DNA of 64,000 nucleotides from Clostridia bacterium (lineage in GTDB: Bacteria; Bacillota; Clostridia; Oscillospirales; CAG-272): assembly GCA_017503285.1 (NCBI GenBank), contig JAFVTH010000022.1, forward strand, positions 4,749 through 68,748, given 5' to 3'. The notes beneath the pieces are model-generated. The model was not told the DNA's origin, did no database searches, and was given only the letters and a program-made list of their open reading frames with translations. This document shows, one piece after another, positions 1-30,780 of this stretch (the stretch's first letter is position 1; each line of letters starts with the position of its first letter). Made by a program: the position numbers and the translations under genes.

Positions 1-731
1 TCAAACTCCGGTCCGTCAACGCACGCAAATACAGTTTTGCCACCAACGCTAAGACGACAGCCACCGCACATACCTGTACCGTCAATCATAATCGGGTTCA
101 TTGATGCAACGGTTTTTATGCCGTACTCCTTTGTAAGCAGGCACACAAACTTCATCATTGGCAAAGGTCCGATGGTAATAACCTCATCAAACTTATGCCC
201 TGCCTCAATAAGCTCCTTAAGTGCATTTGTAACAAGCCCCTGCTTGCCTGCTGTGCCGTCATCTGTCATAAGCACAAAATTGCTTGACGCTTTCTTGAAC
301 TCGTCCTCTAAAATAACAAGGTCCTTGCTTCTGAAGCCACAAATTGCGTGAACCTCACAGCCCAAGCCGTGGAGCTTTTTGGCAACCGGATATGCAATAG
401 CGCAGCCAACACCACCACCAACAACGGCAACCTTTTTAAGCCCATCTGTATGGGTAGCCTTGCCAAGCGGACCAACAAAGTCACAAAGCGCCTCGCCCTT
501 TTCCATATGGGCAAGCCTTTCGGTTGTTGCGCCAACTACTTGGAAAATGATTGTAACGCTACCGCGCTTTCTGTCAAAGTCTGCTATTGTGAGAGGAATC
601 CTCTCACCGTCCTCGTGAGTACGAAGAATTATAAACTGCCCCGGCTCTGCCTTTTTGGCAACCAAGGGAGCTTCTATATCCATAAGCACAACCGTTGGGT
701 TGAGAACCTTTTTCTTAAGTATCTTGTACAT
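1..731 (-). CDS. FAD/NAD(P)-binding oxidoreductase subunit of the sulfide/dihydroorotate dehydrogenase-like (NfnA / ferredoxin-NADP+ reductase alpha) family; 3' end runs off the window
   Basis: Absent from the ORF track because it is open at the window edge. Minus-strand translation from ATG 731..729 (GGAG 5 nt upstream) reads MYKILKKKVLNPTVVLMDIEAPLVAKKAEPGQFIILR...VAVVGGGVGCAIAYP...MIDGTGMCGGCRLSVGGKTVFACVDGPEF with no stop. It has a GGGxG fold and a C-terminal Cys cluster. Plus-strand ORFs 37..746 are shadow frames. Confidence 0.7.
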   Translation of the reverse strand, partial: MYKILKKKVLNPTVVLMDIEAPLVAKKAEPGQFIILRTHEDGERIPLTIADFDRKRGSVTIIFQVVGATTERLAHMEKGEALCDFVGPLGKATHTDGLKKVAVVGGGVGCAIAYPVAKKLHGLGCEVHAICGFRSKDLVILEDEFKKASSNFVLMTDDGTAGKQGLVTNALKELIEAGHKFDEVITIGPLPMMKFVCLLTKEYGIKTVASMNPIMIDGTGMCGGCRLSVGGKTVFACVDGPEF

Positions 732-740
732 ATCTACTCC

Positions 741-1577
741 TTATAGGTCGTAGGTAGCCTTTGAAAGCTTTTTGCTAAGCACCTGATAAAAGCTTCTTTC
801 TGCCACCTTGATAATTTTTGCGCATTTACTATGCTTCCTAATTCTAACCACGTCGCCGTCGTATATATCAATTGCGTTTTCGCCATCAATTTGGAGTGAT
901 GGGTTGCCAACCTTGGTAATGCTGTTTACGCTAACCTTGATTTCAAGAGTGTCGCCACCACCGATAACAATAGATGAACGCGGATAATATTTCGGAGAAA
1001 CAGGTGTTAGAACCATATTGTCCGCAGTCGGGGTCAAAACAGGTCCGCCGGCAGACATATTGTACGAGGTGGAGCCGGTTGGGGTTGCAACAATAAAGCC
1101 GTCACCAACTGCGGTTTGGGTAAGCGCACCGTTTATGTAAATCTCCAAGGAAAATGCCTTGAGCAAGGATGAACGATAAAACGCAGCCTCGTTAAGTGCA
1201 ACGAAGGAGCAAACCACCTTGTCCTCTCTTACAATCTCGCCCTCAATAAGAAGCCTGTTTTCAATGTTATATTTACCTTCAACAACGCTGGATATAGCTT
1301 CAATTGCTGTATCCGGATTACACTCGGTAAGATAGCCAAGGCTACCAAAATTAATGCCAAGCACAGGCGTGTTTACGGTACACATTTTTTTGCAGGCACG
1401 CAAAAGTGTACCGTCTCCACCAAGGACAAGAGCAAAATCTGCGCCCTCCCTTGGCATTTCATGCTCGGTTAGCACGGAAACCTCGTAGCCATTATTTATT
1501 AAAATTTCAGTTGCGATTTTAGAAAAGGAAACGCTTTGTTCTTTTAGGTAATTGGGTACTATAATTGCCTTCTTCAT
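741..1577 (-). CDS. nadK: NAD kinase
   Basis: 278 aa with LVLGGDGTLL and ATPTGSTSYN motifs. The stop lies 10 nt upstream of the next minus-strand gene. Confidence 0.9.
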   Translation of the reverse strand: MKKAIIVPNYLKEQSVSFSKIATEILINNGYEVSVLTEHEMPREGADFALVLGGDGTLLRACKKMCTVNTPVLGINFGSLGYLTECNPDTAIEAISSVVEGKYNIENRLLIEGEIVREDKVVCSFVALNEAAFYRSSLLKAFSLEIYINGALTQTAVGDGFIVATPTGSTSYNMSAGGPVLTPTADNMVLTPVSPKYYPRSSIVIGGGDTLEIKVSVNSITKVGNPSLQIDGENAIDIYDGDVVRIRKHSKCAKIIKVAERSFYQVLSKKLSKATYDL

Positions 1578-1654
1578 AGTAAATCCCCCTTAAACTGATT
1601 AATAAAAACATTTTAGCACGTTATATGCTATTTGTCAATTATAAAATAATATAA

Positions 1655-1678
1655 ATAAAAAAGGCGGTATAAACCGCC
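1655..1678 (-). terminator. Rho-independent terminator closing the cotJ operon
   Basis: Hairpin GGCGGT-ATAA-ACCGCC (1663..1678) followed by a T-run on the minus strand, 5 nt after the cotJC stop (1683..1685). Confidence 0.75.
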
Positions 1679-1682
1679 AATT

Positions 1683-1874
1683 TTATTTGTCAAATGCCGG
1701 GTTGTAGCCGTAGAAGTTCTTTGAATCCATATTGTCCTGTGCTATTCTTAGTGCGTCACAGAAGCGCTGATAGTGAACTACCTCGCGGGCACGAAGGAAC
1801 TTAATTGCGTCGCAAACATCCGGGTCGTCAACAAGCCTTAAAATGTTGTCGTAGGTTGTTCTTGCCTTTTGCTC
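1683..1874 (-). CDS. cotJC: cotJC 3' segment (C-terminal 63 codons of the spore-coat manganese-catalase-family protein CotJC), separated from its 5' segment by the 9.1-kb element
   Basis: Encodes EQKARTTYDNILRLVDDPDVCDAIKFLRAREVVHYQRFCDALRIAQ..., collinear with B. subtilis CotJC EEKARATYQWLIDISDDPDLNDSLRFLREREIVHSMRF. It has no credible start or RBS of its own. The TTG-initiated extension to 1910 in the ORF track lies in element DNA. Confidence 0.85.
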   Translation of the reverse strand, partial: EQKARTTYDNILRLVDDPDVCDAIKFLRAREVVHYQRFCDALRIAQDNMDSKNFYGYNPAFDK

Positions 1875-1900
1875 CGGTGCATTGTTACTAATGCAACCTA
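1875..1900. repeat. Element-side recombination arm (left junction), the inverted partner of 10935..10960
   Basis: cggtgcattgttactaatgcaaccta matches the reverse complement of 10935..10960 at 20 of 26 positions. It starts immediately after the TC dinucleotide at 1873..1874 and overlaps the recombinase stop codon (1898..1900). Confidence 0.7.
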
Positions 1901-3382
1901 AAAATTCCAAAAAATTGTAACGGGGACGATTTTTGTGCCCTTTACCCTTTTTTCAACTACTATTTTCTCAACAAGCATATCCACAAGCTCTCTTGTCAAA
2001 TGTGTCGGGTGTATATAACTATCCAAATTTAGCTCTTTTTCGCCTTTTTGGGTGGTTTTATAGACACGTCTTAGGCTTTTTTGCTCGTTTTCGATTTTTA
2101 TAAGCATTTGCAAAAACAAGTCCTTGCTAATTATTCCGTTTAGCTTATCCTCGTAAATTTGTCTGATTTTGTCCTCGTTTTTCTTAATTTTTTCTTCTGT
2201 GGTTTTGGTATGGCTAAGTGGTTTTATTTTTAACGAAAGCAGCCTTTTTTTGTCTAAATACCGGTCAAATATTTTGTTAAGCTCGGAAAGAACTGTTTTC
2301 TCCAAGCTATCAACCGATATAAACGAGCCTATGCATTCATTTTTAGAAATATAGTGAGTTGGGCATTTTAAGTATGTCTTGCCTTTTGACTTGGAGCTTT
2401 TTAGGGTATAGCCACAATGGGCACAGAAAACCTTTTTTGAAAATACACCTATTTCTCCTGCTTTTTGCGGTCTTGTTTTTTCTGAAAGCATTGCCTGAGC
2501 CTTTTCCCACACTATTTTGTCTATTATAGGTGGGTGGGTGTTTTTTACTATGTACCACCTGTCCCTTGGACGAGGCTTGTTTATCTTGCTTTTGTATGAC
2601 ACGCTGCCATACTTACCCTGCACCATATTTCCTATATACATTTGGTTGTTTAGAATCGATGAAATCGTGGAATACCGCCACAGGGTGCCACTTTTTTCAT
2701 TATTTGTCTTAAATTTTAGTCCCTTTTGTCTTTTGTATGATGAGGGGTTTGGCACACCTTTTTCGTTAAGTGTCTTTGCTATCTTGCTTTTGCCATAACC
2801 ACTGATATAAAGATTAAAAATCAGCCTTACTATCTCTGCTGCCTCCGGGTCGATTTTTAATTTTCCTCTTTCGTTTTCGTCCTTGAGGTAGCCATAAAGT
2901 GCAAAGGAGCCTATGTGTAAGCCGTTTTTCCTTTTAATATCAAACACGCTCTTTATGCTTTCTGACATATCCTCTAAATACCACTCGTTTACAAGCCCGT
3001 TTATTTGTCTTGCCTTTTTGTTGCCCTTTATTTCTGTATCTATGCCATCAACAATGCTCACAAAGCGAATGCCCCACAAGGGAAAAAGGTAGTGTATATA
3101 CCTTTCTACCAGCTCCATCTCCCTTGTGAAGCGTGACTGGGTCTTGCAAAGAATGATTTGAAAAAGTCCTTTCTTGGCATCCTCTATCATTTGATTAAAG
3201 GCAGGGCGATTGCGGTCTGCACCTGTATAGTCGTCATCGCTGTAGATTTTATATATTCCCCAGCCCTTTTTTTCTGCATAATCCCTAAGCATTTGCTTTT
3301 GATTTATAATACTTTCCGAGTCCTTTTCTTCTCTTTTATTCCTGTCCTCCTCGGAGAGTCTACAATAAATTGCGACCTGCAT
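1898..3382 (-). CDS. Large serine recombinase (resolvase/invertase N-domain + recombinase domain + zinc ribbon + coiled coil)
   Basis: 494 aa from ATG 3382 (RBS GAGGAAAG). Contains MQVAIYCRLSEEDRNK...SESIINQ (catalytic Ser motif), a conserved central recombinase region and a zinc ribbon CAHCGYTLKS..KCPTH. The track's TTG start at 3397 is less likely. Confidence 0.9.
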   Translation of the reverse strand: MQVAIYCRLSEEDRNKREEKDSESIINQKQMLRDYAEKKGWGIYKIYSDDDYTGADRNRPAFNQMIEDAKKGLFQIILCKTQSRFTREMELVERYIHYLFPLWGIRFVSIVDGIDTEIKGNKKARQINGLVNEWYLEDMSESIKSVFDIKRKNGLHIGSFALYGYLKDENERGKLKIDPEAAEIVRLIFNLYISGYGKSKIAKTLNEKGVPNPSSYKRQKGLKFKTNNEKSGTLWRYSTISSILNNQMYIGNMVQGKYGSVSYKSKINKPRPRDRWYIVKNTHPPIIDKIVWEKAQAMLSEKTRPQKAGEIGVFSKKVFCAHCGYTLKSSKSKGKTYLKCPTHYISKNECIGSFISVDSLEKTVLSELNKIFDRYLDKKRLLSLKIKPLSHTKTTEEKIKKNEDKIRQIYEDKLNGIISKDLFLQMLIKIENEQKSLRRVYKTTQKGEKELNLDSYIHPTHLTRELVDMLVEKIVVEKRVKGTKIVPVTIFWNF

Positions 3383-3479
3383 TTTTTCTTTCCTCAAGCG
3401 CCTTTATTTGCTCAATATACCATTTTGTAAGCTCCTGCTTTTTTAGCTCATTCTTGAAGATGTTTGTTACTTTTTCCAT
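3360..3479 (-). CDS. Hypothetical 39-aa ORF overlapping the recombinase start (possible directionality-factor candidate, or just 5' UTR)
   Basis: MEKVTNIFKNELKKQELTKWYIEQIKALEERKNAGRNLL. Its 3' end overlaps the recombinase start by 23 nt in another frame. No Shine-Dalgarno sequence is visible. A TAAAAT box ends 5 nt before the ATG, so only a leaderless mRNA would work. Confidence 0.2.
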   Translation of the reverse strand: MEKVTNIFKNELKKQELTKWYIEQIKALEERKNAGRNLL

Positions 3480-3504
3480 GTTACATTTTATGTTAGATAT
3501 GAAA

Positions 3505-3530
3505 GAAAAAAGACAGGAAAACCCTGTCTT
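3505..3530 (-). terminator. Rho-independent terminator of the STAND gene
   Basis: Minus strand GACAGG-gtttt-CCTGTC followed by TTTTTT, starting 6 nt after the stop at 3536. Confidence 0.75.
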
Positions 3531-3535
3531 TTTAA

Positions 3536-6500
3536 TTAATTTAGCTTTTCCTTTATCGTCTCTATAAGCTCTTGGATTTGCTTTTTTTGCTCCTGACAAG
3601 CAAGCTCAAGCACAGCTTCAGCCTCGCTATTAAACAATTGTAGATACTTTTTAGTGCCTTCGCTATCTATTTCATAAATTTGAATAAGCATTTCCCCGCA
3701 AGCGATTACCATATTGTGGCTTTGCGCTTCGTTTATTTGCGCATGCATCTTAGCAAGCATTATGACAGCCTCACAGGACTTGGTTCTTATATCTTCCTTT
3801 ATTAGCAAACCGTATTTATCTGCTGTGCCAACAAGTCTAACAGCATATTTTTCAGCAAGACGCATTTCCTCGCGCTTTAGTGCAAATTCAAGCCCCTCGT
3901 TGTAAGTATTTATAAGCTGTTCTAAGGCTTTATCGCTATTTGTTTTGATAACCAATAGCTCCATTGCCCTTGCTTTGCTTGCTATACAGCTTTGTCTTTT
4001 TTGCTTGTCGTGGAAATATTTACGTTTAGCATAGGCGTTCTTTAGTTTATCAAAGGTTTGTGCAAGTACATTGCAGTAATCCTCCGCCCCTTGCTCATCC
4101 ATAGCGTTTATAGTGCTTTCCACCTGTTCAAGGGCAAGCCTTGCATGCTTCAGAGCGTTAGGATAGTACATTTTTCTGTCATTTTCAGCTATAATTTCGA
4201 CAGTTGTTACAGCAAAATTAAAGGCTTTTTCTAAGTACTCCCACTCTTTTTCCTTATCTCCTGCATTTTTATATCCGTTTGCAATAGATAAAAGAATGTC
4301 GTAGACCTTCAAATCCTCATAGGTGCATTCTTCCCTTGCGTCGATTTCATATAGTTGTCCTATAAGATCAAGAATCTCCTCTTGCATATCTATGCCAAGT
4401 AGAGCTGTTTCCTTGTTTTCAGAGCTTGTGTATGCAGTTGCCATCTCAATCCTTGCATGTAATGGATAAAGAATTTTATCCTGCTCATCGGCAAAATCCA
4501 GGTTGTTTATTATTTCAAATGCCATTTCTGCCTCATCAAGGCGCTTTACATTTGAAGCGGCAGCTATCATTTCTCTGTAAATCTCGCTTTTTGCCTCTGG
4601 AGCAAGTATGCTTTTATCTCCAAGCATGCTAAGCATAGTGTCTGCTACATTTTCTAAAGCTTCCCTCTCGGCAATAATTGATACAGCTTCCTTCATGAGC
4701 TCAAAGCTATAATCGTATTTATCAGTTATTTTACAGAGTCTAATGATTTTTGCAAGCTTATAATTCATAAGTGCTATATCAAGTGGCTCTTCACCATCAA
4801 GTGCTTTAATGATTTCTCTTGCCCTTGATAAATAATCATAGGAATTTATGTAACTTGAAGAGCCATAGTATGTGCATCCAAGACGATAATATGTTATATA
4901 TTGTAGCTTTTTGTAAATATTATCATCAAAATCATTTACAAGCCCGTCTATAACTTGCCTTGCCTCCTTGCCTATCCTTTGGGCACGAAGATAGCCACGC
5001 ATAGTGTCGGTAAATATGCAAGCCTCCATATATCTTGCAAGAAGACAATATTTCGAAAGCCTTGATTCCTTGCTATTTTGACCTTCTAAAATTGCCATTC
5101 TTCTTTTGTAGGCTCTTTCTAACATTTCTCTGCCTTCATTACACTCAGAAATCATAAGAAAGCTGAGATTGCCAAAAATAGCGTTTTCATAATCGCAGTT
5201 TTGATAATCCTTTTCAAAGTTCTTTTCCTTGTCAAGACCAAAAACCGACCATTCAGTAGCTTCATTTTGACTATATTCAAATAGAGGTGACATGGCATCC
5301 ATCATCGCCTGGTCCCTATTCATAGCTCCACTTAAGTCGCCAAAATACATAAGTCCGATGACATTTATGCCTGCAAGAGCCTGCTTGCTTTTAGAGGTTT
5401 GGGTTTCGTCGCTTATTTTTTTATAAAGGCTTTTTGCCTTTTTATAGGCTTTTTTTGCATCATTATCCTTTATAGCGCCACCAAGCATTTTCGTAATTGA
5501 CGAAAAGATTGAAGCTTGGGAATCGTTTTCCTCGAACATACCCATACCGCACCTTGCAACCGCAGTGTTTACTATATCCTGATAAAGTGAGGCAAGCACA
5601 TCTTGTACCTCGTAGCTTACCACAGGCTTTGTGTCCATATACGCCTCAATTTCTTTGATTAGCTGGCTGGAAAAATCTACTTCAAGCGCGCTACTATACT
5701 GCTTTTCCTTTGACAAAATCGCACGCTCGGCAAGGGTCAATCTTCTATATATTTCCGCTTTTTTGATTAGATAACTTTCTTTTTCCAGATTTTTTTCATC
5801 AAGCAAAGCCACTGCCTTTAAAAAGTAATCCTTTGCGTTTTGACCTGCTTTTTGCTCACCCATACCGATGTAAGCCTCAAGCAAGGTATCCTTATCGTCG
5901 CTGTCTTCTAAAAGCTCAATTGCCTTTTGATAATATTCCGTTGCACACAAGCAATACTCTGTACCACTAAAGGTGTTATAGCCCTTTGCCACCCCAGTAT
6001 ATGCCCTTGCCAAGGCAGTTTTATTTTCCAGCCTCTGTGCATAGCTAACAGCTGTTTCATAGCTTATGCACATATCCTCCATTGAAAAGCCAAGGCTGAT
6101 TTCTGCACTTACATTTCCAAGTAAAATATAGGCATTTATCAAAAGCTCAAGCATTTTGTCATCCTGCGGCAATGATTCTATTAGCTTGATGCTTGCATAC
6201 AAGCTTCTCGCTCTTGCCTCAAGCTGGCTTTTTGTTTGTCCGAAATATGATGGTAATGTATTAACTAAGAATTCTAACACCTCATAGCTTGGATTTTCTT
6301 TGATGTAAGAGCAAAGCTCGTCAAGCCATACGCCCTCATCCTCCAAGCATTTTTCTGCTAAGGCAGATGCAACATATGAAAGCGATTCCTTGGTGGCTGA
6401 CACAATTTGCTCCACAAAGGATAATTTGTTATCAGCACAAATTGCGTGATAAGCACATTCTTGAGCCTTTAGTAAATCATCGTTTTCTAAGCTTGATATA

Positions 6501-8239
6501 TATTTCAAAAGCTGGGCGTGGATTTTACTCTTTTCCTCTGCGAGGGTATGGCACAAGCCCTGTCTAAAGCTACGGTGGACAAAGTCAACCCTACCATCTG
6601 CACGAATAAATAGTGAGTCTCTTAAATAGTGAATAAATGAAGAAAAATCAAGTCCGTTCCATTGGTCCTTAAGGAGAGCCTTTAGATCGCCTTGCCTCAA
6701 GCCATAGCGAGAAAAAGCAAGATATCTAGCACATTTTCCTATAAGCTCAGGGTTGATTCTTTCAGCTGAATCAAGAAACAGGCAAACGCTCATTTCCTCA
6801 AGGGTGTGTGGTACATTTTCAAGCAAGGATAATTGATGCTCCGTTATGGCTGACATACCATCACCAGCCTCACGAATACGCAAAAAGTCCTCCTCGTTCA
6901 TCATAACGAGGCGTTGCATTAACAAGTCAAGATAAAGTGGGTTTTTTGCCCCTGCTTTTCTCATAACGGCATTTTTTACCTCTTTGGAAAGCTCTCTGCG
7001 TCTTGCCTTTTCAATGCCTACTATTATTTCACCTATTTCTTCGTCGCTTGCGCATTTCCAAGTATATTTGGATAGGTGTGTGCTTGTCTTAAAATCGCTT
7101 GTGGCGGTTGAAACGAATTTTACATATTTTGATGTTTTGGTTGGAACAAAAATAAGCTGGTCACGGTTTTCGTCTGCTGAAAGCTGGTCAAGGCTATCTA
7201 CCAAAATAGCAACCATTTGCTTTTTAACTTGGCATTGGTTTGTTAAGAGGTATAGTCTATTTTTTAATTCCTCTATTGTGTTAATTTTTAGCTCTCTTGT
7301 AAGTCCAAGCTGTAATTCCAATGCTTCTACAATAACCTCTAAAACACCATATGCATTACTTGTTTTGGTGGTAAGAGACGAAAAAACAGGTATAGTTTTA
7401 TATCCCTTTTTCTCAAAAGCATCGTTATAATATGCCATTAGTGTGCTTTTACCACTTCCACTTTCGCCAAGAATTAAAGCGCCTGCATCATTTGCGTTTA
7501 TGTTTGAAAATAGCTTATCGGCTTCTTTCCTTTTTGCGTAAAAATGAGTTAGCTTGTCCTTGGCATATAGCCTATGCACCCTTAGTTCCTTTTCAATAGG
7601 AGTCAGGCTGGCTGTTGCCTGCCAGTCTGATTTTAGGATTGACAAAACATCCTCTGCCACCATTTTGGCAAAGGAATCTATTTGTGTAAGCTCATTATTT
7701 TCCCATTTTACCCTGTAGGTTTTTACAGAGCCACCACTAATTTTCATTATCCTTTGCTTAAGCTCCTTAAGCTTTTGATAATGATAGTCGTCCTCTTGCT
7801 TGTAAATATCAGGGATATCACCCTCGATTTCTCTAAAATAGAAAAGAGTTCGTCCGTTTTTTCTCTTTTCATTAAGAGCGCCATATTCTATTTCCAATGT
7901 GGTAACGCTCTTTTCCAAATCGTCAAGCTTGATACCATATCTTTTGGCAGCAGAGCCAACGATTTTTTCATCTGGAATCCAACCGTAGCGATATCCTAAA
8001 ATAACAACCATAGGTGGCTGACAATGGTCGATTTCGTCAAGGCAAACATTTAAAACCTTTGTTGAGCCTGCGTCACTTTCCATATCCTCGGTATTTACGC
8101 CCCAACGAAGGTCGCATATTTCCACGCTTTCCCCCCATTTTTTTGCTTCCTCATATAGAATAGGGAGAGTGATTTTTTGCAGAGCATCGCGCTCCTTATG
8201 CATATCCTTAAAGGTGCTTGATACAAATATTGTTTTCAT
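3536..8239 (-). CDS. NLR-like STAND NTPase: DUF4062-type N-terminal domain + NACHT-like P-loop NTPase + long TPR-like repeat region (1567 aa)
   Basis: The start is moved to ATG 8239 (GGAGG 8 nt upstream); the 25-codon extension in the track has no RBS. The N-terminus MKTIFVSSTFKDMHKERDAL...ICDLRWGV...CLDEIDHC..VVILGYRYGWIP matches the DUF4062 pattern seen at the N-terminus of NWD1-type NACHT proteins. Walker A is GESGSGKST (7442..7468) and Walker B is MVAILVDSLDQL (7181..7216, like the NACHT DGxDE motif). The C-terminal ~1100 aa are helical TPR-like repeats (for example ARAYTGVAKGYNTFSG..YYQKAIELLE). Confidence 0.75.
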   Translation of the reverse strand: MKTIFVSSTFKDMHKERDALQKITLPILYEEAKKWGESVEICDLRWGVNTEDMESDAGSTKVLNVCLDEIDHCQPPMVVILGYRYGWIPDEKIVGSAAKRYGIKLDDLEKSVTTLEIEYGALNEKRKNGRTLFYFREIEGDIPDIYKQEDDYHYQKLKELKQRIMKISGGSVKTYRVKWENNELTQIDSFAKMVAEDVLSILKSDWQATASLTPIEKELRVHRLYAKDKLTHFYAKRKEADKLFSNINANDAGALILGESGSGKSTLMAYYNDAFEKKGYKTIPVFSSLTTKTSNAYGVLEVIVEALELQLGLTRELKINTIEELKNRLYLLTNQCQVKKQMVAILVDSLDQLSADENRDQLIFVPTKTSKYVKFVSTATSDFKTSTHLSKYTWKCASDEEIGEIIVGIEKARRRELSKEVKNAVMRKAGAKNPLYLDLLMQRLVMMNEEDFLRIREAGDGMSAITEHQLSLLENVPHTLEEMSVCLFLDSAERINPELIGKCARYLAFSRYGLRQGDLKALLKDQWNGLDFSSFIHYLRDSLFIRADGRVDFVHRSFRQGLCHTLAEEKSKIHAQLLKYISSLENDDLLKAQECAYHAICADNKLSFVEQIVSATKESLSYVASALAEKCLEDEGVWLDELCSYIKENPSYEVLEFLVNTLPSYFGQTKSQLEARARSLYASIKLIESLPQDDKMLELLINAYILLGNVSAEISLGFSMEDMCISYETAVSYAQRLENKTALARAYTGVAKGYNTFSGTEYCLCATEYYQKAIELLEDSDDKDTLLEAYIGMGEQKAGQNAKDYFLKAVALLDEKNLEKESYLIKKAEIYRRLTLAERAILSKEKQYSSALEVDFSSQLIKEIEAYMDTKPVVSYEVQDVLASLYQDIVNTAVARCGMGMFEENDSQASIFSSITKMLGGAIKDNDAKKAYKKAKSLYKKISDETQTSKSKQALAGINVIGLMYFGDLSGAMNRDQAMMDAMSPLFEYSQNEATEWSVFGLDKEKNFEKDYQNCDYENAIFGNLSFLMISECNEGREMLERAYKRRMAILEGQNSKESRLSKYCLLARYMEACIFTDTMRGYLRAQRIGKEARQVIDGLVNDFDDNIYKKLQYITYYRLGCTYYGSSSYINSYDYLSRAREIIKALDGEEPLDIALMNYKLAKIIRLCKITDKYDYSFELMKEAVSIIAEREALENVADTMLSMLGDKSILAPEAKSEIYREMIAAASNVKRLDEAEMAFEIINNLDFADEQDKILYPLHARIEMATAYTSSENKETALLGIDMQEEILDLIGQLYEIDAREECTYEDLKVYDILLSIANGYKNAGDKEKEWEYLEKAFNFAVTTVEIIAENDRKMYYPNALKHARLALEQVESTINAMDEQGAEDYCNVLAQTFDKLKNAYAKRKYFHDKQKRQSCIASKARAMELLVIKTNSDKALEQLINTYNEGLEFALKREEMRLAEKYAVRLVGTADKYGLLIKEDIRTKSCEAVIMLAKMHAQINEAQSHNMVIACGEMLIQIYEIDSEGTKKYLQLFNSEAEAVLELACQEQKKQIQELIETIKEKLN

Positions 8240-8270
8240 ACAGATTCCTCCAAATGATGTCCTTATCTTA

Positions 8271-8299
8271 ATTATACAGGTTTTTTTCACATATTGCAA
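8271..8299 (-). promoter_or_regulatory. SigmaA-type promoter of the STAND gene
   Basis: Minus strand TTGCAA-17 nt-TATAAT, about 30 nt upstream of the RBS. Confidence 0.6.
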
Positions 8300-8300
8300 G

Positions 8301-8327
8301 AAAAAAAGCGACACGGGGGTCGCTTTT
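8301..8327 (-). terminator. Terminator of asnA
   Basis: GCGAC-CCCCGT-GTCGC hairpin with a T-run on the minus strand, directly after the asnA stop (8328..8330). Confidence 0.7.
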
Positions 8328-9335
8328 TTATAGTAGAACTATGTTGTTTTCCTTGCACACCTTATATGTTTCCTCGTCCCAAATGGAAACCTGCACCTCG
8401 CCAATATGCGCCTTGCCGAGAAGAAGCATGGAAAGACGAGATTGACCGATACCGCCACCCATTGTAAGCGGAAGCTCGCCATTTAAGAGCATTTTGTGGA
8501 ATGGAAGGCTTCTCCTTTCATCCTTGCCGGATGCGCTAAGCTGGTAGTCAAGTGATTTTTCATCAACTCTAATACCCATTGAGGAAATTTCAAAGGCGTG
8601 GCCGAGCAGCTCATTATAGAAAAGAATGTCGCCGTTTAGCTCCCAGTCATCATAGTCGGGGGCACGGTTGTCATGAGGCATACCGGACTTAAGCTTGCCA
8701 CCGATTTTCATAATGAAGGCTGTGCCAACCTCCTTTAGGTAAAGGTCCTCCCTTTCCTTAGAGGTTTTGCCGGGGTACATATCCTCAAGCTCCTGTGAGG
8801 TGATAAATGAAACCTCACGATTGAGATTTACATTAATTTGTGGGTAGGAGCATTTTAGAACATCAAGTGTTTCGCAAATTGCGCCAACGATGCATTTTAC
8901 CACCGTTTTCATATATTCTATGGTGCGTGTTTCGGTTGTTATAATCTTTTCCCAGTCCCATTGGTCGGTGTAGATGGAGTGGATATTATCCATTTCCTCA
9001 TCACGGCGAATAGCGTTCATATCTGTATAGATGCCCTCGCCTGCTGAAAAGCCGTATTCCTTAAGTGCCATACGCTTCCATTTCGCAAGAGAGTGAACGA
9101 TAACCGCGCTTTTACCGGTTTCCTTAATTTCAAAGTCAACTGCACGCTCAACACCGCTCAAATCGTCGTTAATACCCATATTTGGGTCAACGAACAATGG
9201 CGCAGATACACGCCTTAGGTTGAGGGCAAGGCAAAGCTTATCCTCGAAGGTCCTTTTAAGAGTGCCGATGGCTCTTTGTGTTTCATACATTGTAAGGGCA
9301 GATTTGTAGCCCTTGGGAATAATAATCTTGCTCAT
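8328..9335 (-). CDS. asnA: Aspartate-ammonia ligase (asparagine synthetase A)
   Basis: 335 aa from ATG 9335 (MSKIIIPKGYKS). Collinear with E. coli AsnA, including HSLAKWKR, DQWDWEK, APDYDDW, GGGIGQSRL and HIGEVQ. Confidence 0.9.
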   Translation of the reverse strand: MSKIIIPKGYKSALTMYETQRAIGTLKRTFEDKLCLALNLRRVSAPLFVDPNMGINDDLSGVERAVDFEIKETGKSAVIVHSLAKWKRMALKEYGFSAGEGIYTDMNAIRRDEEMDNIHSIYTDQWDWEKIITTETRTIEYMKTVVKCIVGAICETLDVLKCSYPQINVNLNREVSFITSQELEDMYPGKTSKEREDLYLKEVGTAFIMKIGGKLKSGMPHDNRAPDYDDWELNGDILFYNELLGHAFEISSMGIRVDEKSLDYQLSASGKDERRSLPFHKMLLNGELPLTMGGGIGQSRLSMLLLGKAHIGEVQVSIWDEETYKVCKENNIVLL

Positions 9336-9431
9336 AATATGTCCTTTATGCCTTACGGGAGTGAAACGAATCAGTTTTGGAACGGACAAAAAACCCGTCT
9401 TTGGCGTTAAAATTTTTTGAAATATTTTTAT

Positions 9432-9456
9432 AAAAGGGGCTTTGAAGCCCCCTTTG
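9432..9456 (-). terminator. Terminator of asnS
   Basis: GGGGC/GCCCC hairpin followed by TTTT on the minus strand, about 10 nt after the asnS stop. Confidence 0.6.
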
Positions 9457-9465
9457 TTTCTTGAA

Positions 9466-10842
9466 TTAGAGGCTACCTACTGTTCTTGGGAACAAAAGTG
9501 TATCTCTTATGTTTTGTACGCCTGTTAGATACATCATGGCTCTGTCAAAGCCAAGACCGAAACCACTATGTGGAACGCTGCCAAACTTTCTTGTATCAAG
9601 GTATTCCTTGTACATTTCAAGCGGCATGCCACGCTGTAGCATTGCACTTTCAAGCTTCTTGTAGTCCCATTCTCTTTCACTGCAGCCGATGATTTCGCGA
9701 ATGCCAGGAACTAAAAGGTCAGTTGCGGCAACGGTTTTTCCGTCGTCATTTTGCTTCATATAGAACGCCTTAATATCCTTTGGATAATCAACAACGAATA
9801 CAGGCTTCTTAAAGTATTCATCAGTTAGGTACTTCTCGTGCTCTGTCTGAAGGTCACAGCCCCACTCAACAGGATACTTAAAGTCCTTGCCACTCTTTTT
9901 GAGAACCTCAACAGCCTCGGTATAGGTAATTCTACCAAAGTCGCTATTTACAACGTTATTTAGCTTGTCAATAAGACCGGGCTCAACCCATTGATTAAAG
10001 AACTGAAGCTCCTCCGAGCAAACGTCCATAACATAGCGGATGATGTACTTAATAAAGTCCTCGGCGATTTCGATAATATCATCAATTTCAGCAAAGCAAA
10101 CCTCAGGCTCAATCTGCCAGAACTCTGCTGCGTGACGAGTTGTATTACTATGCTCTGCGCGGAAGGTTGGACCAAAGGTGTAAATCCTACCAAGACCCAT
10201 AGCAGCCATTTCGCCCTCTAGCTGAGCAGAAACGGTAAGACCTGCCTTTTGACCGAAGAAGTCGTTTTGATAATACTCCTCCTCGCTCTTAAAATCGGTT
10301 GTCCAAGGCTGAGTTGTTACACGGAACATCTCGCCTGCGCCCTCACAGTCACTACCTGTGATGATTGGTGCGTGAACATATTTATAATCGTTTTCGTTAA
10401 AGTACTTGTGTACAGCAAAGGAAAGCTGGTTACGAACTGCAAAAACAGCCTCGAAGTATCTTGCCCTTGGACGAAGATGTGGGATTGTACGAAGGAACTC
10501 AAGAGTATGTCTCTTCTTCTGGAGAGGATAATCCTGTGGACACTCGCCCAAAACCTTAATATCAGTAACGGTGATTTCATATCCGTTCTTTTCAGATACG
10601 ATAAACTTGCCCTCAACACGGAGTGAGGCACCAACCACCATTGCATTTTTCATATCATCAAGCTGGAGATTTTCCTTTTCCAAAATGAGCTGAATATTCT
10701 TAAGGCAGGTGCCATCATTAAGCTCAATAAAGGAAATAGTTTTAGAATCTCTTGCTGTTCTAACCCAACCACAAATAACTACGCTTTGGTCAATATAATC
10801 CTGTGGGTTTTGGAAAAGCTTTTTTATGTCTGTATGCTTCAT
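9466..10842 (-). CDS. asnS: Asparaginyl-tRNA synthetase (class IIb)
   Basis: 458 aa from ATG 10842 (MKHTDIKKLF). An N-terminal OB-fold anticodon-binding region is followed by a class II core (FRAE..TTRHAAEFWQIEPE, GFGLGFDR). ATG 10860 is an alternative start. Confidence 0.9.
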   Translation of the reverse strand: MKHTDIKKLFQNPQDYIDQSVVICGWVRTARDSKTISFIELNDGTCLKNIQLILEKENLQLDDMKNAMVVGASLRVEGKFIVSEKNGYEITVTDIKVLGECPQDYPLQKKRHTLEFLRTIPHLRPRARYFEAVFAVRNQLSFAVHKYFNENDYKYVHAPIITGSDCEGAGEMFRVTTQPWTTDFKSEEEYYQNDFFGQKAGLTVSAQLEGEMAAMGLGRIYTFGPTFRAEHSNTTRHAAEFWQIEPEVCFAEIDDIIEIAEDFIKYIIRYVMDVCSEELQFFNQWVEPGLIDKLNNVVNSDFGRITYTEAVEVLKKSGKDFKYPVEWGCDLQTEHEKYLTDEYFKKPVFVVDYPKDIKAFYMKQNDDGKTVAATDLLVPGIREIIGCSEREWDYKKLESAMLQRGMPLEMYKEYLDTRKFGSVPHSGFGLGFDRAMMYLTGVQNIRDTLLFPRTVGSL

Positions 10843-10883
10843 TTTGAACATAGCCCCCATAAATATTTATAATTAATATGATT

Positions 10884-10912
10884 ATTATACAACTTTTATA
10901 TTTACAAGTCAA
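10884..10912 (-). promoter_or_regulatory. SigmaA-type promoter of asnS, inside the element
   Basis: Minus strand TTGACT-17 nt-TATAAT. It sits between the right junction and asnS. Confidence 0.65.
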
Positions 10913-10934
10913 CAACTTTTTTTATTTTTTGCAT

Positions 10935-10960
10935 AAGCTTGCATTTGTAGCTATGCACCA
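10935..10960. repeat. Element-side recombination arm (right junction), the inverted partner of 1875..1900
   Basis: aagcttgcatttgtagctatgcacca. Its reverse complement, tggtgcatagctacaaatgcaagctt, matches 1875..1900 at 20 of 26 positions. It ends immediately before the TC at 10961..10962. Confidence 0.7.
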
Positions 10961-11367
10961 TCTGCTGCTAAGTCCTCGTTTAAGTCTGTTATAACATCGC
11001 CCTTGGACTGGAATTGAGCTGCGCTGTATGGGAAGCCACTGGCTGCAACCGGGTATATGCCTGTTGTGTGGTCTACAAAGTAGGTGTCAAAGCCACTCTT
11101 TACTATTTCGTCAGGGGTTAGGTTTCTTGTAAGCTGATAGAGGATTGCGGATATCATCTCAAAGTGCGCAAGCTCCTCCGTGCCAACATCCGTTAGGATT
11201 CCAACCACCTTGGAGTATGGCATTGCTATTCTTTGAGTAAGGTAGCGAAGCGATGCTCCGATTTCTCCATCAGGTCCACCTAATTGGCTGACTATAATTT
11301 GAGCATATTTTGGGTTTGGATTTTTAATGTTTACAGGGTATTGAAGCTTTTTCTCGTATTGCCACAT
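10961..11367 (-). CDS. cotJC: cotJC 5' segment (N-terminal 135 codons plus the first 2 nt of the split Glu codon); as integrated, the frame runs 3 codons into element DNA to a TAG at 10951
   Basis: MWQYEKKLQYPVNIKNPNPKYAQIIVSQLGGPDGEIGASLRYLTQR...LTDVGTEELAHFEMI...SKGDVITDLNEDLAA is collinear with B. subtilis CotJC MWVYEKKLQYPVKV...LTDIGTEEFAHLEMI...AKGDPIADLYEDIAA. RBS GGAGG. Confidence 0.9.
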
Positions 11368-11370
11368 ATA

Positions 11371-11637
11371 TTATTTCCTCCCCTCGTCGTTTTGCCATGG
11401 CCATGGTCCCTCTGTCCATTGCCAGCTTGTTGCATCCTCCGGCATTGTAATAGGTCCATATTTTTGCTCATATTCTGCCCTTGCCCTTGCCTCAAGCTTT
11501 TTGTACTTGTTGTAAAAGTCCAAGGCAGCCTTGGAGTCCGGGTAGGCATCAAGATACAAAAGCGCCTCGTATACAGCAAAGGAATAGCTTTGAAGCTCTC
11601 TTAGGCATCTTTGTCTGGTTCTGTCATTTTTCATCAT
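11371..11637 (-). CDS. cotJB: Spore coat protein CotJB
   Basis: 88 aa with LQSYSFAVYEALLYLDAYPDSKAAL and the C-terminal WQWTEGPWPWQ signature. Strong RBS GGGGAGGGG. Confidence 0.85.
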   Translation of the reverse strand: MMKNDRTRQRCLRELQSYSFAVYEALLYLDAYPDSKAALDFYNKYKKLEARARAEYEQKYGPITMPEDATSWQWTEGPWPWQNDEGRK

Positions 11638-11928
11638 TTACAGACACCCCTCCCCACCATTTTGTCTTTTGTTGCCACAGCCACTGCGCATAAAGGGCTT
11701 GTGAAGCTGGGAAAAGATTGTGCCATTGACTAATGCAATTTCAGGGTCGTAAAGACTACAAAAATCCTGTCTTACAGGGTAAACCATAGCAAGATGGGGC
11801 GACCCTGTGTTTGAATTTGTATGATTTTCGCACTTTGACTCTGCTTTAGCAATAAATGCAGAAAAGGCATTAAAATCTGCTTCTCTTTGTCTTCTTGACA
11901 TAGAATCAAGTCTCATATTGTTCTCCAT
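11638..11928 (-). CDS. cotJA: Spore coat-associated protein CotJA
   Basis: LAMVYPVRQDFCSLYDPEIALVNGTIFSQLHKPF matches the CotJA signature. The start is ATG 11928, or more likely ATG 11916 (GGAG 6 nt upstream). The 176-aa form in the track, reaching 12168, crosses the divergent promoter region and is rejected. Confidence 0.8.
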   Translation of the reverse strand: MENNMRLDSMSRRQREADFNAFSAFIAKAESKCENHTNSNTGSPHLAMVYPVRQDFCSLYDPEIALVNGTIFSQLHKPFMRSGCGNKRQNGGEGCL

Positions 11929-11952
11929 TCTGAGCCTTTTCGGCTCTTTAAT

Positions 11953-11979
11953 AGCATATGACAAAATAAGACAATATTC
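11953..11979 (-). promoter_or_regulatory. Candidate sigmaE-type (mother-cell) promoter of cotJABC
   Basis: Minus strand GAATATT-12 nt-CATATGCT, compared with the B. subtilis sigmaE consensus kmATATT / CATACAmT. cotJ is sigmaE-dependent in B. subtilis. The spacer may be a little short. Confidence 0.35.
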
Positions 11980-12091
11980 TACTTTCTTTTTATTTATACC
12001 GGTAAAATTGTTGTAATTTTTTTCTTTTCTCTTCCTTTTTTTGTTTTTTGGTGCTATAATGACCTTATATATTCTAAAAAGGAGCTTACTT

Positions 12092-13447
12092 ATGAATATA
12101 GTTATTATCGGCCTTGGCACCATTGGCGAAACAGTCCTTAAAAGCCTTTCCGGCGAGGGACACACCATAACAATTATTGACGGAAACGAAAATAAGGTTG
12201 AGTCCCTAATTGAAAAGTATGATATTTTCGGCGTGGTTGGTAACGGCGCTTGTATGGATATTCAAAGGGAGGCCGGTGTTGAAAACGCTGACCTTGCTAT
12301 TGTTCTTACCAACAGTGATGAGCTTAATGTTTTTGCTTGTCTTGTTGCAAAAAGGCTTGGTGTGCAAAACACAATTGCTCGTGTAAGAAACCCAGACTAT
12401 CAGCAGCAAATTATAGATATGAAGGACACCCTTGGCCTTTCTATGATTGTAAATCCTGAGATGGAAACAGCACAGGAAATTTTTAATCTTATAAGCCTAC
12501 CCTCCATTGAGCAGGTTGAGCGTTTTGCTAAGGGCAAGGCACTTTTGGTTGAAATTTATCTTGAAAAGGGCTGCTCTCTTATCGGCGAAAGCCTTATTAC
12601 CATGTCAAAAAAGGTAAATACAAGGGTGCTTATCTGTGCTGTACAGCGCGGTGACCAGGTTGTTATACCTTCCGGTAACTTTGTGTTTGAAGAGGGTGAC
12701 TGCGTACACTTTACCTCTGATGCAAGCTCTCTTGACGACTTTTTAAGAGAGGTTAACATTGTTAGCTCCCCTCTTAAGAGAATTATGATTATTGGTGGTG
12801 GCAGAATCGGCTTTTATCTTGCCGAAATGCTTTCCTCTAAAAAATACGAAATCAAGCTTATGGCAAGCAATCTTGAGGAGGCTGAGGAGCTGGCGGAAAC
12901 TCTGCCTAAGGTTACTGTTATCCATGGTAATGGCACTCAGCACGACTTATTGATTGAAGAGGGCATTGAGGCTATGGACGCCTTTGTTGCTCTTACAAAA
13001 ATCGATGAGGAGAATATGATTGCCTCAATGTTTGCAAATAAGATGAAGGTAAAAAAGACTATCTCTCAAATTAAGAACGATAGCCTTTACGATATGCTTA
13101 GCGAGCTTGATATCGACAACAACGTTTCTCCTAAGAACATTGTTGCAAACAAAATTATAAGCTATGTGCGCGCCCTTGCAAACAAGCGTGGCAGTAACAT
13201 ACTTACACTTTATCGTCTTGTTAACAACCGGGTTGAGGCCCTTGAATTTCTTGCTAAAAAAGAGGAGAAGTTCTTTAACAAGCCTCTTAGAACTATTAAA
13301 ACAAAGGATAACTGCCTTGTTGCCTGCATTATCAGAGATGGCAAGGTTATTATCCCTGACGGTAATTCTTCAATTCAGCTTGGAGATAATGTTATCGTCG
13401 TTACCACACACAAAAGCTTTGATGACTTAAATGATATTCTTGATTAA
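12092..13447 (+). CDS. trkA: Trk system K+ uptake protein TrkA (double RCK)
   Basis: 451 aa from ATG 12092 (AAGGAG RBS). Two NAD-binding motifs, IIGLGTIG and IIGGGRIG, each followed by an RCK_C region. Confidence 0.85.
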   Translation: MNIVIIGLGTIGETVLKSLSGEGHTITIIDGNENKVESLIEKYDIFGVVGNGACMDIQREAGVENADLAIVLTNSDELNVFACLVAKRLGVQNTIARVRNPDYQQQIIDMKDTLGLSMIVNPEMETAQEIFNLISLPSIEQVERFAKGKALLVEIYLEKGCSLIGESLITMSKKVNTRVLICAVQRGDQVVIPSGNFVFEEGDCVHFTSDASSLDDFLREVNIVSSPLKRIMIIGGGRIGFYLAEMLSSKKYEIKLMASNLEEAEELAETLPKVTVIHGNGTQHDLLIEEGIEAMDAFVALTKIDEENMIASMFANKMKVKKTISQIKNDSLYDMLSELDIDNNVSPKNIVANKIISYVRALANKRGSNILTLYRLVNNRVEALEFLAKKEEKFFNKPLRTIKTKDNCLVACIIRDGKVIIPDGNSSIQLGDNVIVVTTHKSFDDLNDILD

Positions 13448-28872: not shown

Positions 28873-28965
28873 TACAAAAGGGTGAGCAGTTTTTCTGCCC
28901 ACCCTTTTGTATTATTTTTCCATAGGCTGCATATACTAAAAAGAGATTTACTCTTGGAGGTTTAT

Positions 28966-30780
28966 ATGTGCTCTATTTGTGGAGAAATTAATTTTTGGGT
29001 GCCAAATAACAGGCAAGAAATTGTTAAGAAAATGAGCCAGACAATGAAGCACCGTGGTCCTGATGAAAGTGACATTTTTAATGATGGCTACGCTACCCTT
29101 GCCCACAACAGGCTAAGCGTTGTGGACATTGAAAACGGCAAGCAGCCTATGAGCGTTATATACGGAAACAAAAAATATACTATCGTTTATAATGGCGAGA
29201 TTTACAACTGCGACGAGCTGCGCAGGGAGATAAGAAAGCAAGGGATATTTTTAAGAACAAATTGCGACACCGAGGTGGTGCTATACTCATATATCCTTTT
29301 TGGGCAGGACGCGCCAAAGCATCTTAATGGTATTTTTGCATTTTGTGTATATGATGGAGAGCGTGCGTTTTTTGCAAGGGATAGGTTTGGTGTAAAGCCC
29401 TTATACTATTCCTTTAAGGAAAACTCTTTGATTTTTGCATCGGAAATCAAGGCTATGCTTGCCCATCCTAAAATCAGCCATAATATTACAAAAGAGGCTC
29501 TTTGGGAAATTTTGTACTTAAGCCCGAATTTTGTAGGTGGCAGAAGTGCTTTTAAGGATATTTTAGAGCTTTTGCCGGGGGAGTGTATGATTTTTGACAA
29601 AAATCATACCACAAAAAGCAAATATTGGCAGATTGAAGCAAAGCCATTTTTTAAGGACAGAGACTATGCTATTGAGAAAACAAGGTACTTAGTTTGCGAT
29701 GCTGTAAAAAGGCAGCTTGGCGCTGATGTGCCTCTTTGCGTTTTGCTTTCCGGCGGACTTGACTCCAGCGTAGTAACTGCAATAGCAAATGAGGAATATA
29801 AAAAAGATAAAAGGGTGCTTTCTACCTATTCCTTCGAATACGAGGGGAACAAGGAAAGCTTTAGAAATAGCCTTTTCCAGCCCGAAAAGGACGATGATTT
29901 TGCTGTTTATTTGGCAGATTATTTGGGTACAGACCACACCGTGCTAACCTGTCCGACCTCTACCCTTGCACAAAATCTTATACCATCTACTGATTTTAGG
30001 GATTTGCCGGGGCAGGCAGATATTGACTCCTCTCTCTTGTATTTCTGCAAAGAAATTAAAAAGCGCCACACCGTTGGGCTAAGTGGAGAATGCTCTGATG
30101 AAATTTTTGGCGGATATCCTTGGTTTTACAGACCCGAAATGCTTTACTCCGACTTTTTCCCCTGGATACACTCCCCACGACTGCGACCATCGCTTTTCAA
30201 GGACGATATTTCAAACAGTAAAGAGGGCTTTGATTACGTCAAGGGTATTTACAGCGACACACTAAAGGGCTGTCCCACCCTATCCTACGACTCAGCAGAG
30301 ATGAAAACCTCAAGGCTTGCCTCCCATCTTAGTGTTAATTTCTTTATGACATCTCTTCTGCAAAGAAAGGACAGAATGAGCATGGCAAGCGGTGTTGAGA
30401 TAAGAGTTCCCTTTGCCGACCATAGAATTTATGAATTTTTGTTTAATGTTCCTTGGGAAATTAAGTTTGAGGGTAAGGTGGAAAAGGCACTTTTGCGAAA
30501 CAGCATGGTTGGGTATTTGCCCGAGAAGATTTTATTCAGAAAAAAGAGCCCCTATCCAAAGACACACAACCCAAAATATATGGACGCTGTTCTTAAAATG
30601 CTTGATGAGCGTCTTTTGAGCGGTGGATATCTTAAAAACACACTTGATAAGACTAAGCTTGATAGTGTTATTGCCTCGGGTGGAACGTGGTTTGGTCAGC
30701 TGATGGACACACCGCAGCTTGTAGCTTGGCTTATTCAGCTTGACTATTGGTTTGAGAAAAACAATATAAATATTGTTTAG
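28966..30780 (+). CDS. asnB: Asparagine synthase (glutamine-hydrolysing)
   Basis: 604 aa from ATG 28966 (GGAGG RBS). The N-terminus MCSICG supplies the Cys nucleophile of an Ntn amidotransferase. SGGLDSS PP-loop. Confidence 0.85.
   Translation: MCSICGEINFWVPNNRQEIVKKMSQTMKHRGPDESDIFNDGYATLAHNRLSVVDIENGKQPMSVIYGNKKYTIVYNGEIYNCDELRREIRKQGIFLRTNCDTEVVLYSYILFGQDAPKHLNGIFAFCVYDGERAFFARDRFGVKPLYYSFKENSLIFASEIKAMLAHPKISHNITKEALWEILYLSPNFVGGRSAFKDILELLPGECMIFDKNHTTKSKYWQIEAKPFFKDRDYAIEKTRYLVCDAVKRQLGADVPLCVLLSGGLDSSVVTAIANEEYKKDKRVLSTYSFEYEGNKESFRNSLFQPEKDDDFAVYLADYLGTDHTVLTCPTSTLAQNLIPSTDFRDLPGQADIDSSLLYFCKEIKKRHTVGLSGECSDEIFGGYPWFYRPEMLYSDFFPWIHSPRLRPSLFKDDISNSKEGFDYVKGIYSDTLKGCPTLSYDSAEMKTSRLASHLSVNFFMTSLLQRKDRMSMASGVEIRVPFADHRIYEFLFNVPWEIKFEGKVEKALLRNSMVGYLPEKILFRKKSPYPKTHNPKYMDAVLKMLDERLLSGGYLKNTLDKTKLDSVIASGGTWFGQLMDTPQLVAWLIQLDYWFEKNNINIV

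Follow-up and report, generated by a model that had tools for sequence, protein, structure and literature searches.

The 64,000-nucleotide stretch of Clostridia bacterium DNA analysed in this study (hereafter the window) contains a cotJA-cotJB-cotJC operon in which the coat gene cotJC occurs as two segments with 9,088 bp of other sequence between them. Immediately upstream of cotJC lie cotJB and cotJA, and the remainder of the cotJ operon is intact. The intervening sequence encodes asnS, asnA, a DUF4062-STAND NTPase, an open reading frame (ORF) of 39 codons and a large serine recombinase, and every one of these lies on the minus strand (Table 1). An earlier note on this DNA, made from the letters alone, had described cotJC as a split gene interrupted by a recombinase-bearing element. 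The coordinates it gave for cotJC, the break at codon 135, the three-codon tail and the 63-codon 3' part were all reproduced exactly in our analysis; the intervening length it reported is the distance between two GA dinucleotides (10962/10961 to 1874/1873), which is exactly 9,088 bp; the recombinase that it placed 24 bp inside the boundary has its stop codon at 1898-1900; and the terminator that it saw after the 3' part is the hairpin at 1663-1678. Overall, the locus is best explained by an integrated element of 9,088 bp that is not a phage, lies within cotJC and has a short GA core at both junctions, and the structural reading of a precise, recombinase-bearing insertion in an otherwise intact cotJ operon was borne out. 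The element interrupts the coding sequence of cotJC within its operon, as the intervening elements of sporulation genes do; it carries its own recombinase, a short common core restores the reading frame, and the two halves of the gene are undecayed.

Table 1. Genes, crossover sites and signals at the interrupted cotJC locus, with positions in the window.
Feature	Position	Strand	Remarks
cotJ operon terminator	1663..1678	-	GC-rich hairpin and T run, after the cotJC 3' segment
cotJC 3' segment	1683..1874	-	codons 136-198 and stop (EQKARTTYDN...NPAFDK, 63 codons)
attR crossover dinucleotide GA	1873..1874	-	
Element end beside attR (P arm)	1875..1899	-	terminal inverted repeat arm
Large serine recombinase	1898..3382	-	494 amino acids from ATG 3382; Pfam Resolvase, Recombinase, Zn_ribbon_recom, DUF4368
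Conserved 39-codon ORF	3360..3479	-	overlaps the recombinase start
Terminator hairpin after the STAND gene	3507..3533	-	12-pair stem and T run
DUF4062 and STAND P-loop NTPase	3536..8239	-	1,567 amino acids; long helical C-terminal region
Sigma70-type promoter-like site before the STAND gene	8271..8299	-	TTGCAA-17-TATAAT, 10/12
asnA, aspartate--ammonia ligase, cargo	8328..9335	-	335 amino acids from ATG 9335; mechanical ORF to 9389; TIGR00669 321.8 bits (cut-off 292.8); Pfam AsnA 3.6e-101
Terminator-like hairpin after asnS	9436..9451	- (listed on +; palindromic stem)	15 nt past the asnS stop
asnS, asparagine--tRNA ligase, cargo	9466..10860	-	NCBIfam equivalog 611 bits (cut-off 414); Pfam
Sigma70-type promoter of asnS	10884..10912	-	TTGACT-17-TATAAT, 11/12 consensus positions
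Element end beside attL (P' arm)	10936..10960	-	terminal inverted repeat arm
attL crossover dinucleotide GA	10961..10962	-	first two bases of the Glu136 codon
cotJC 5' segment	10963..11367	-	codons 1-135 (...NEDLAA), then DGA, stop at 10951
cotJB	11371..11637	-	Pfam CotJB 8.7e-25
cotJA	11638..11916	-	92 codons per gene calls in L085/L087; Pfam CotJA 4.7e-09; mechanical ORF to 12168
Candidate sigmaE-type promoter of the cotJ operon	11953..11979	-	GAATATT-N12-CATATGCT, read from the sequence

Analysis of the two segments revealed that the 5' segment is 93-95% identical to residues 1-135 of intact orthologues and the 3' segment 95-97% identical, and neither half contains stops or frameshifts. Joined, they give a protein of 198 amino acids that forms one Pfam Mn_catalase domain (residues 1-184, E = 1.8e-49) and is collinear with 80 uninterrupted orthologues, as the earlier note had expected of the concatenated halves. 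The joined CotJC aligns across the junction with the solved Mn catalases 4r42/6j42 and 1jku, and the split point is the glutamic acid of an AAE motif, inside a helix, that aligns with the AAE of these structures. We take this glutamic acid to be a metal ligand in helix 3. The earlier note had also held that the 3' part lacks a start codon and a ribosome-binding site of its own; no Shine-Dalgarno sequence was found, whereas an in-frame TTG does occur 12 codons upstream (ORF 1683..1910). Each of cotJC, asnS, asnA and the recombinase was found only once within the 64-kb window. In Bacillus, cotJ is a mother-cell operon under sigmaE. The motif upstream of cotJA is a candidate promoter that we assign to sigmaE by its likeness to the Bacillus consensus, and an identical motif with identical spacing is present in two further species (contigs L106 and L104).

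Comparison with related genomes, scanned with one genome per species, returned 80 cotJC loci. In all 80 the gene is uninterrupted and residues 1-198 are collinear with the joined protein at 73-94% identity, the 5' half ending exactly where the 3' half starts; uninterrupted alleles of the kind that the earlier note had proposed to look for thus exist in related genomes. The hosts are ruminant-gut Clostridia, namely Oscillospiraceae/Ruminococcus-like metagenome-assembled genomes. About 25 of the 80 loci share the synteny of trkA beside cotJABC and nadK, and no asnS, asnA, STAND or recombinase gene occurs within 10 kb of them. Because the sites of the relatives are empty, the sequence between the two GA dinucleotides is an insertion.

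The attachment (att) sites read, in gene orientation, ...TTAGCAGCA-GA-TGGTGCATAGCTAC... at attL and ...AACAATGCACCG-GA-GCAAAAGGCAAG... at attR. The GA dinucleotide is the sole identity common to both junctions and is invariant at the crossover position in all 80 intact orthologues (the attB sites). Joining attL and attR at GA restores the GAG codon of Glu136 and an in-frame gene. The ends of the element form a terminal inverted repeat of 24 nt with 83% complementarity (1876-1899 against 10936-10959), and arms homologous to the attL-side end are present in three other elements. The junctions expected after excision are ...GAGGACTTAGCAGCA-GA-GCAAAAGGCAAGAAC... for attB and ...GTAACAATGCACCG-GA-TGGTGCATAGCTAC... 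for attP. One degenerate IUPAC pattern covering attB, attP, attL and attR gave two matches in the window, attL and attR, as expected. Base composition was considered as a further sign of insertion and set aside because its signal is weak: the guanine-cytosine (GC) fraction is 0.36-0.41 in the recombinase and STAND region, 0.42-0.46 in asnS-asnA and 0.44-0.47 in the left flank (1-1600), and the cotJ/trk flank (about 0.38-0.43) overlaps both ranges.

The interrupted allele is not confined to the window. Three further independent assemblies also contain the exact shortened product of 138 amino acids with asnS behind it, their DNA being 99.9-100% identical. Besides the window's own assembly, three assemblies contain the attL junction and at least four contain attR. 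A commoner form in the same species, found on 16 contigs, has a shortened product of 166 amino acids whose first 135 residues are identical to those of the window. Its element of 21,464 bp is contiguous on one 41.7-kb contig (L098:10405-20501 joined to L091:1-14380), and it has a different yet homologous left arm and about 12.5 kb of extra cargo, lacks the STAND gene, and continues after the extra cargo with the same asnS-asnA, small ORF and recombinase. In total the interrupted cotJC occurs on about 20 contigs, which is every contig of the species that was found. The exact rejoined CotJC protein is not present in a collection of 15 billion proteins, and the best full-length CotJC homologue in the clustered collection has 94% identity, no intact allele exceeding this value.

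Elements in cotJC were also found in other species. In a sister species, with host proteins 86-94% identical, the attL side consists of the cotJC 5' segment, asnS, asnA and the DUF4062-STAND gene, and the attR side of the small ORF, a recombinase with 71% identity, the cotJC 3' segment and nadK; the left arm and the asnS promoter are orthologous to those of the window at the nucleotide level. In a third species (L104:10405-20462, L155:1-18800) the cut likewise falls between DLAA and E, and the left arm is homologous. In the sister species an unassembled insertion lies in the STAND terminator (L107:12939-13094, L081:60-160), with ends formed by inverted repeats of about 40 nt and an ORF beginning MAKKGQKFKSYTKELKEE; it is probably a multi-copy insertion sequence, which would account for the break of every assembly of this species at the STAND terminator. 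In yet another species with trkA beside cotJA-cotJB (L108:3751-11948; also L109 and L110), cotJC is cut after about codon 63, within a TEELAH motif, by a prophage with small and large terminase subunits, portal and major head protein. Hence there are at least two independent insertion sites in cotJC in this clade.

Nonsynonymous (dN) and synonymous (dS) divergence was calculated between the window and the sister species. The 5' half of cotJC gave dN 0.029, dS 0.92 and a ratio of 0.03, and the 3' half dN 0.027, dS 0.90 and a ratio of 0.03, against ratios of 0.02-0.05 for the intact cotJC of other species, whether paired with the window or with each other. The dS values of element genes (asnS 0.61, asnA 0.76) are close to those of the flanking host genes (trkA 0.79, psp1 0.74, holB 0.93, nadK 1.09; range including cotJB 0.74-1.09), and the insertion is therefore older than the split of the two species. 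For the recombinase dS is 1.44 and dN/dS 0.14. The simplest reading of these sequence comparisons is one ancestral insertion followed by vertical inheritance, with both cotJC halves and the recombinase under purifying selection since then. A ratio of about 0.03 in both halves over host-like divergence indicates that cotJC has been kept functional while split, and since both halves are under strong selection the gene is most likely rejoined during sporulation.

The recombinase is intact and matches the PHROG integrase profile at 1.4e-104 and an annotated TndX with 32% identity over its full length (E = 1e-60); relatives at about 53% identity are frequent in viral contigs (IMG/VR). By its domain set, this similarity and the GA crossover it is classed as a TndX-like large serine recombinase. 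TndX has a central GA dinucleotide at its crossover and alone suffices for excision and integration (PMC4430133). The 39-codon ORF keeps its frame in the sister species, with 59% protein identity beside the 71%-identical recombinase and with synonymous or conservative changes, and it is identical in L084/L091. It has no family match in PHROG and no called protein in the protein collection. The gin element has a proven directionality factor, GirX, with 42 amino acids and no motif (PMC5595907). Since the 39-codon ORF is kept beside the recombinase and GirX is likewise tiny and motif-free, the ORF is a reasonable candidate, nothing more, for a directionality or regulatory factor, and it is the sole such candidate in the element. 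Before it lies a CATA-type box resembling a -10 element (CATAAAAT in the window, CATACAAT in L084/L091) at a fixed distance in three variants, with no matching -35; the region upstream of the small ORF and recombinase contains no sigma70 promoter and no conserved SpoIIID box. A sporulation promoter for the two genes is not claimed on the basis of this box alone, as no consistent -35 accompanies it.

Taken together, these results make it likely that the element is cut out at its GA dinucleotides and cotJC thereby rebuilt, with the mother cell as the most likely place. The TndX-like recombinase would cut both dinucleotides (attL 10962/10961, attR 1874/1873), the element would leave as a circle, the Glu136 codon would be restored and an in-frame cotJC of 198 codons would result, transcribed from the cotJ promoter. 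If the analogy to skin, SPbeta, vfbin, vrin and gin holds, excision would take place in the terminally differentiated mother cell, while the element would be kept in the spore genome. We infer excision as such, its timing and cell type, and a role for the small ORF. The earlier note had proposed the same course of events: the rebuilding of cotJC gains strong indirect support from the co-divergence of element and host and from the dN/dS of about 0.03, whereas the mother-cell timing is proposed by analogy.

Several observations weigh against this reading. TndX-type recombinases can work without a directionality factor, and because of this a restriction to one cell type is not implied by the list of parts. 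No promoter that convincingly resembles a sigmaE or sigmaK type precedes the small ORF and recombinase; in the window the small ORF lacks a Shine-Dalgarno sequence, it belongs to no known family, and it is missing upstream of the approximately 53%-identical recombinases of the IMG/VR phage relatives. Neither attB nor attP junctions were seen, and the scan of JGI metagenome contigs is uninformative on this point because the species is absent from that collection (attL and attR are absent too). In the sister species the linkage of attL (L106/L107) to attR (L081-83) is deduced from the inverted-repeat ends and no single contig spans it. Finally, a window of 64 kb leaves room for a second cotJC paralogue elsewhere in the genome.

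The main alternative is that excision and re-integration proceed without developmental control. The autonomous TndX-like recombinase would then make the element a mobile island of the usual kind, or a switch that turns cotJC on and off reversibly, with enough cells carrying a rejoined gene for selection to see. The sufficiency of TndX, the closest characterised relative, in both directions (PMC4430133) and the lack of a demonstrable sporulation-type promoter would fit such a scheme, and so would the variation of cargo among strains and species at one site, which implies that the site is used repeatedly. We nevertheless consider it unlikely: element-host co-divergence and an interrupted allele on every contig of the species found point to stable vertical inheritance rather than frequent gain and loss, the circle would have no recognisable replication or transfer genes, and loss of an element carrying asnS should be costly in dividing cells. 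The decayed pseudogene that the earlier note had named as an alternative, with a coat that copes without CotJC or through a paralogue, finds a parallel in C. difficile, where paralogues of the CotJC family are redundant and mutants are mild (PMC11222575). A neutral pseudogene would decay, however, and here both halves show dN/dS of about 0.03 over a dS of about 0.9 with an orthologous insertion in the sister species, and the recombinase, at a ratio of 0.14, is also under purifying selection; inactivation is accordingly disfavoured and appears very unlikely.

Purifying selection on both halves would fit equally well if the pieces were translated separately (138 and 75 amino acids) and assembled non-covalently, so that excision were unneeded, and in both species the 3' piece is covered by a 75-codon ORF that begins at an in-frame TTG. 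This arrangement is hardly probable, given that no Shine-Dalgarno sequence precedes the TTG in either species, that the break interrupts a helix at the AAE glutamic acid codon, and that the 3' piece would come from the recombinase transcript and not from the cotJ promoter. Moreover, the tails of the 5' piece are unconserved (DGA, DGAHL, and 31 or 18 unrelated residues). The DNA seems to come from a metagenome-assembled genome, so unrelated contigs might have been joined by an error of assembly or binning. Such an error is refuted by independent assemblies that repeat the junctions (attL in three others, attR in at least four) and by the 21.5-kb variant, contiguous on its 41.7-kb contig, and we assign it practically no weight. 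Excision with rebuilding of cotJC, probably in the mother cell, is therefore the reading that we prefer.

The cargo was analysed separately. The element asnS is 94% identical to the copy in the sister-species element, where its promoter is nearly identical as well, and 80-83% identical to its best non-element homologues; a more distant relative has asnS-asnA at an ordinary chromosomal locus. An identity of 80-83% to non-element homologues fits vertical descent, and asnS-asnA thus looks captured from the element's own lineage. The STAND protein matches Pfam DUF4062 at 3.8e-14, with nSTAND1 and AAA_22 under the cut-off, has only a marginal PADLOC match to mad8 (E = 8e-4) and has no NCBIfam match. 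Its gene is missing from the other variant of the same species and 56% identical in the sister species; it is variable cargo, presumably a defence or conflict gene. The element lacks the structural, packaging and lysis genes of a prophage, asnS and asnA being housekeeping equivalogs: PHROGs matched the integrase alone, with no hit to either the STAND protein or the small ORF. No transfer gene (relaxase, coupling protein or type IV secretion) is present among the four large ORFs of the element, all of which are assigned. Rfam revealed no T-box or other RNA in positions 1-13000 of the window, in L091 or in L106.

Additional features were observed around these genes. The asnS-asnA spacer (window 9390-9465) measures 76 bp, against approximately 330-370 bp in the other variant (L091:11396-11722) and in the sister species (L106:11903-12271), and the extra sequence in these two has no Rfam match. 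Within asnA, at window 8703-8704, contigs L085, L086 and L095 from different assemblies all stop at exactly the same place, which suggests a repeat or a boundary between strain variants. The extra cargo of the 21,464-bp variant includes a transglutaminase-like protein, a small radical-SAM protein, several proteins of 600-1,100 amino acids without a family, a surface protein with Flg_new repeats, and an AAA ATPase of 736 amino acids that matches the defence candidates PDC-M37B and DolB. The third species carries PAPS reductase, DUF4007, BrxC/PglY-like ATPase, cysteine desulfurase, helicase, HATPase_c_3, PLD, GmrSD_N, protein kinase and SMC-like ATPase, a set that resembles an Ssp-type DNA phosphorothioation defence island, and it has a paralogue of the Mn-catalase family (220 amino acids) just inside attL. 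Elsewhere in the window, a chromosomal glutamine-dependent asparagine synthase of the AsnB type (28882-30780, +) makes free asparagine possible without the element asnA, and dependence on an asparaginyl-tRNA synthetase (AsnRS) is to be expected in a lineage that produces free asparagine. A tyrosine recombinase of the Phage_integrase family (37369-38382, +; 337 amino acids), adjoining an ORF of 197 amino acids without a family match (36622-37215, -), may be a housekeeping recombinase of the Xer type, or else mark the border of a further element. An ORF of 937 amino acids (55913-58726, -) has no Pfam family at E <= 1e-5.

These observations lead to a tentative idea, which we hold to be possible though rather doubtful: the element captured the lineage's own asnS-asnA, and if this is the sole AsnRS gene, loss of the element would be lethal in dividing cells and the element would be locked into the germ line, with the cotJC site serving as a platform into which anti-phage cargo is swapped. 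Premature excision would then be penalised, and only the terminal mother cell could afford it. The swapped cargo would comprise the STAND NTPase here, the block with the PDC-M37B/DolB-like ATPase in other strains and the Ssp-like phosphorothioation island in another species. If so, an aminoacyl-tRNA synthetase operon aboard would be a route by which such elements become irremovable, the variable defence-like cargo would tie insertion sites in sporulation genes to the turnover of defence islands, and the recombinase, with its GA core and arms of about 25 bp, would be a candidate site-specific tool whose natural reaction is precise excision. Results from this study extend the phenomenon of split sporulation genes to uncultured ruminant-gut Clostridia and offer purely comparative evidence, namely host-paced divergence of the element and a dN/dS of 0.03, that the split gene stays functional. 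The phenomenon itself is already known; what sets this case apart is an asnS-asnA operon that looks captured, defence-like cargo that is exchanged between variants, and a comparative case for maintenance over the long term.

Few programmed DNA rearrangements are known in bacteria, and gene-splitting elements that are cut out only in the dying mother cell count among them; the characterised cases known are from Bacilli and from Clostridium/Clostridioides. The recombinase of Tn4451, TnpX, is presumably of the same type of clostridial-transposon large serine recombinase as the one found here. Whether an element in cotJC had been described before, which the earlier note could not say, can be answered: cotJC is listed as an integration target by Abe et al. 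(2013), as cited in bioRxiv 10.1101/2021.11.22.469490, and Galperin et al. (2022; bioRxiv 10.1101/2022.02.25.481979) mention a skin-like element in cotJC of Laceyella sacchari. These survey elements share the target gene and are described as skin-like or as related to phages or transposons, but they are one-line mentions from other taxa, and no earlier cotJC element seems to have been characterised.

Among characterised systems, gin in gerE of Bacillus cereus ATCC 10987 is likewise a non-prophage element in a small mother-cell gene (PMC5595907). Both have a large serine recombinase (GirC in gin) and a tiny protein, the 39-codon ORF falling in the size class of the 42-amino-acid GirX. The two differ in host (Bacilli for gin), in target and in core, a 9-bp consensus in gin against the 2-bp GA here, and the element described here carries housekeeping asnS-asnA and a STAND NTPase as cargo, its excision being predicted. 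The skin element in sigK (SpoIVCA/Skr in B. subtilis, CD1231/CD1234 in C. difficile) similarly splits a mother-cell gene and has a large serine recombinase near one end; in C. difficile a small factor under sigmaE and SpoIIID gives cell-type specificity while the recombinase is constitutive (PMC5025042). In contrast to the present element, skin is derived from a prophage and splits a regulator that gates the late programme, whereas here a structural coat gene is split and phage genes are absent. SPbeta in spsM (SprA/SprB), vfbin in spoVFB, vrin in spoVR and yin in yabG show the same layout and presumed logic (PMC4191935, PMC10747680), but these are prophages or their remnants, while the element in cotJC has no phage genes and a core cargo that diverged in step with the host. 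Tn5397 with TndX shares the recombinase domain set including DUF4368, with 32% identity, and the central GA (PMC4430133); as a conjugative transposon, however, it carries genes for transfer and resistance and has no tie to sporulation, whereas the element described here has no transfer genes and splits a sporulation gene.

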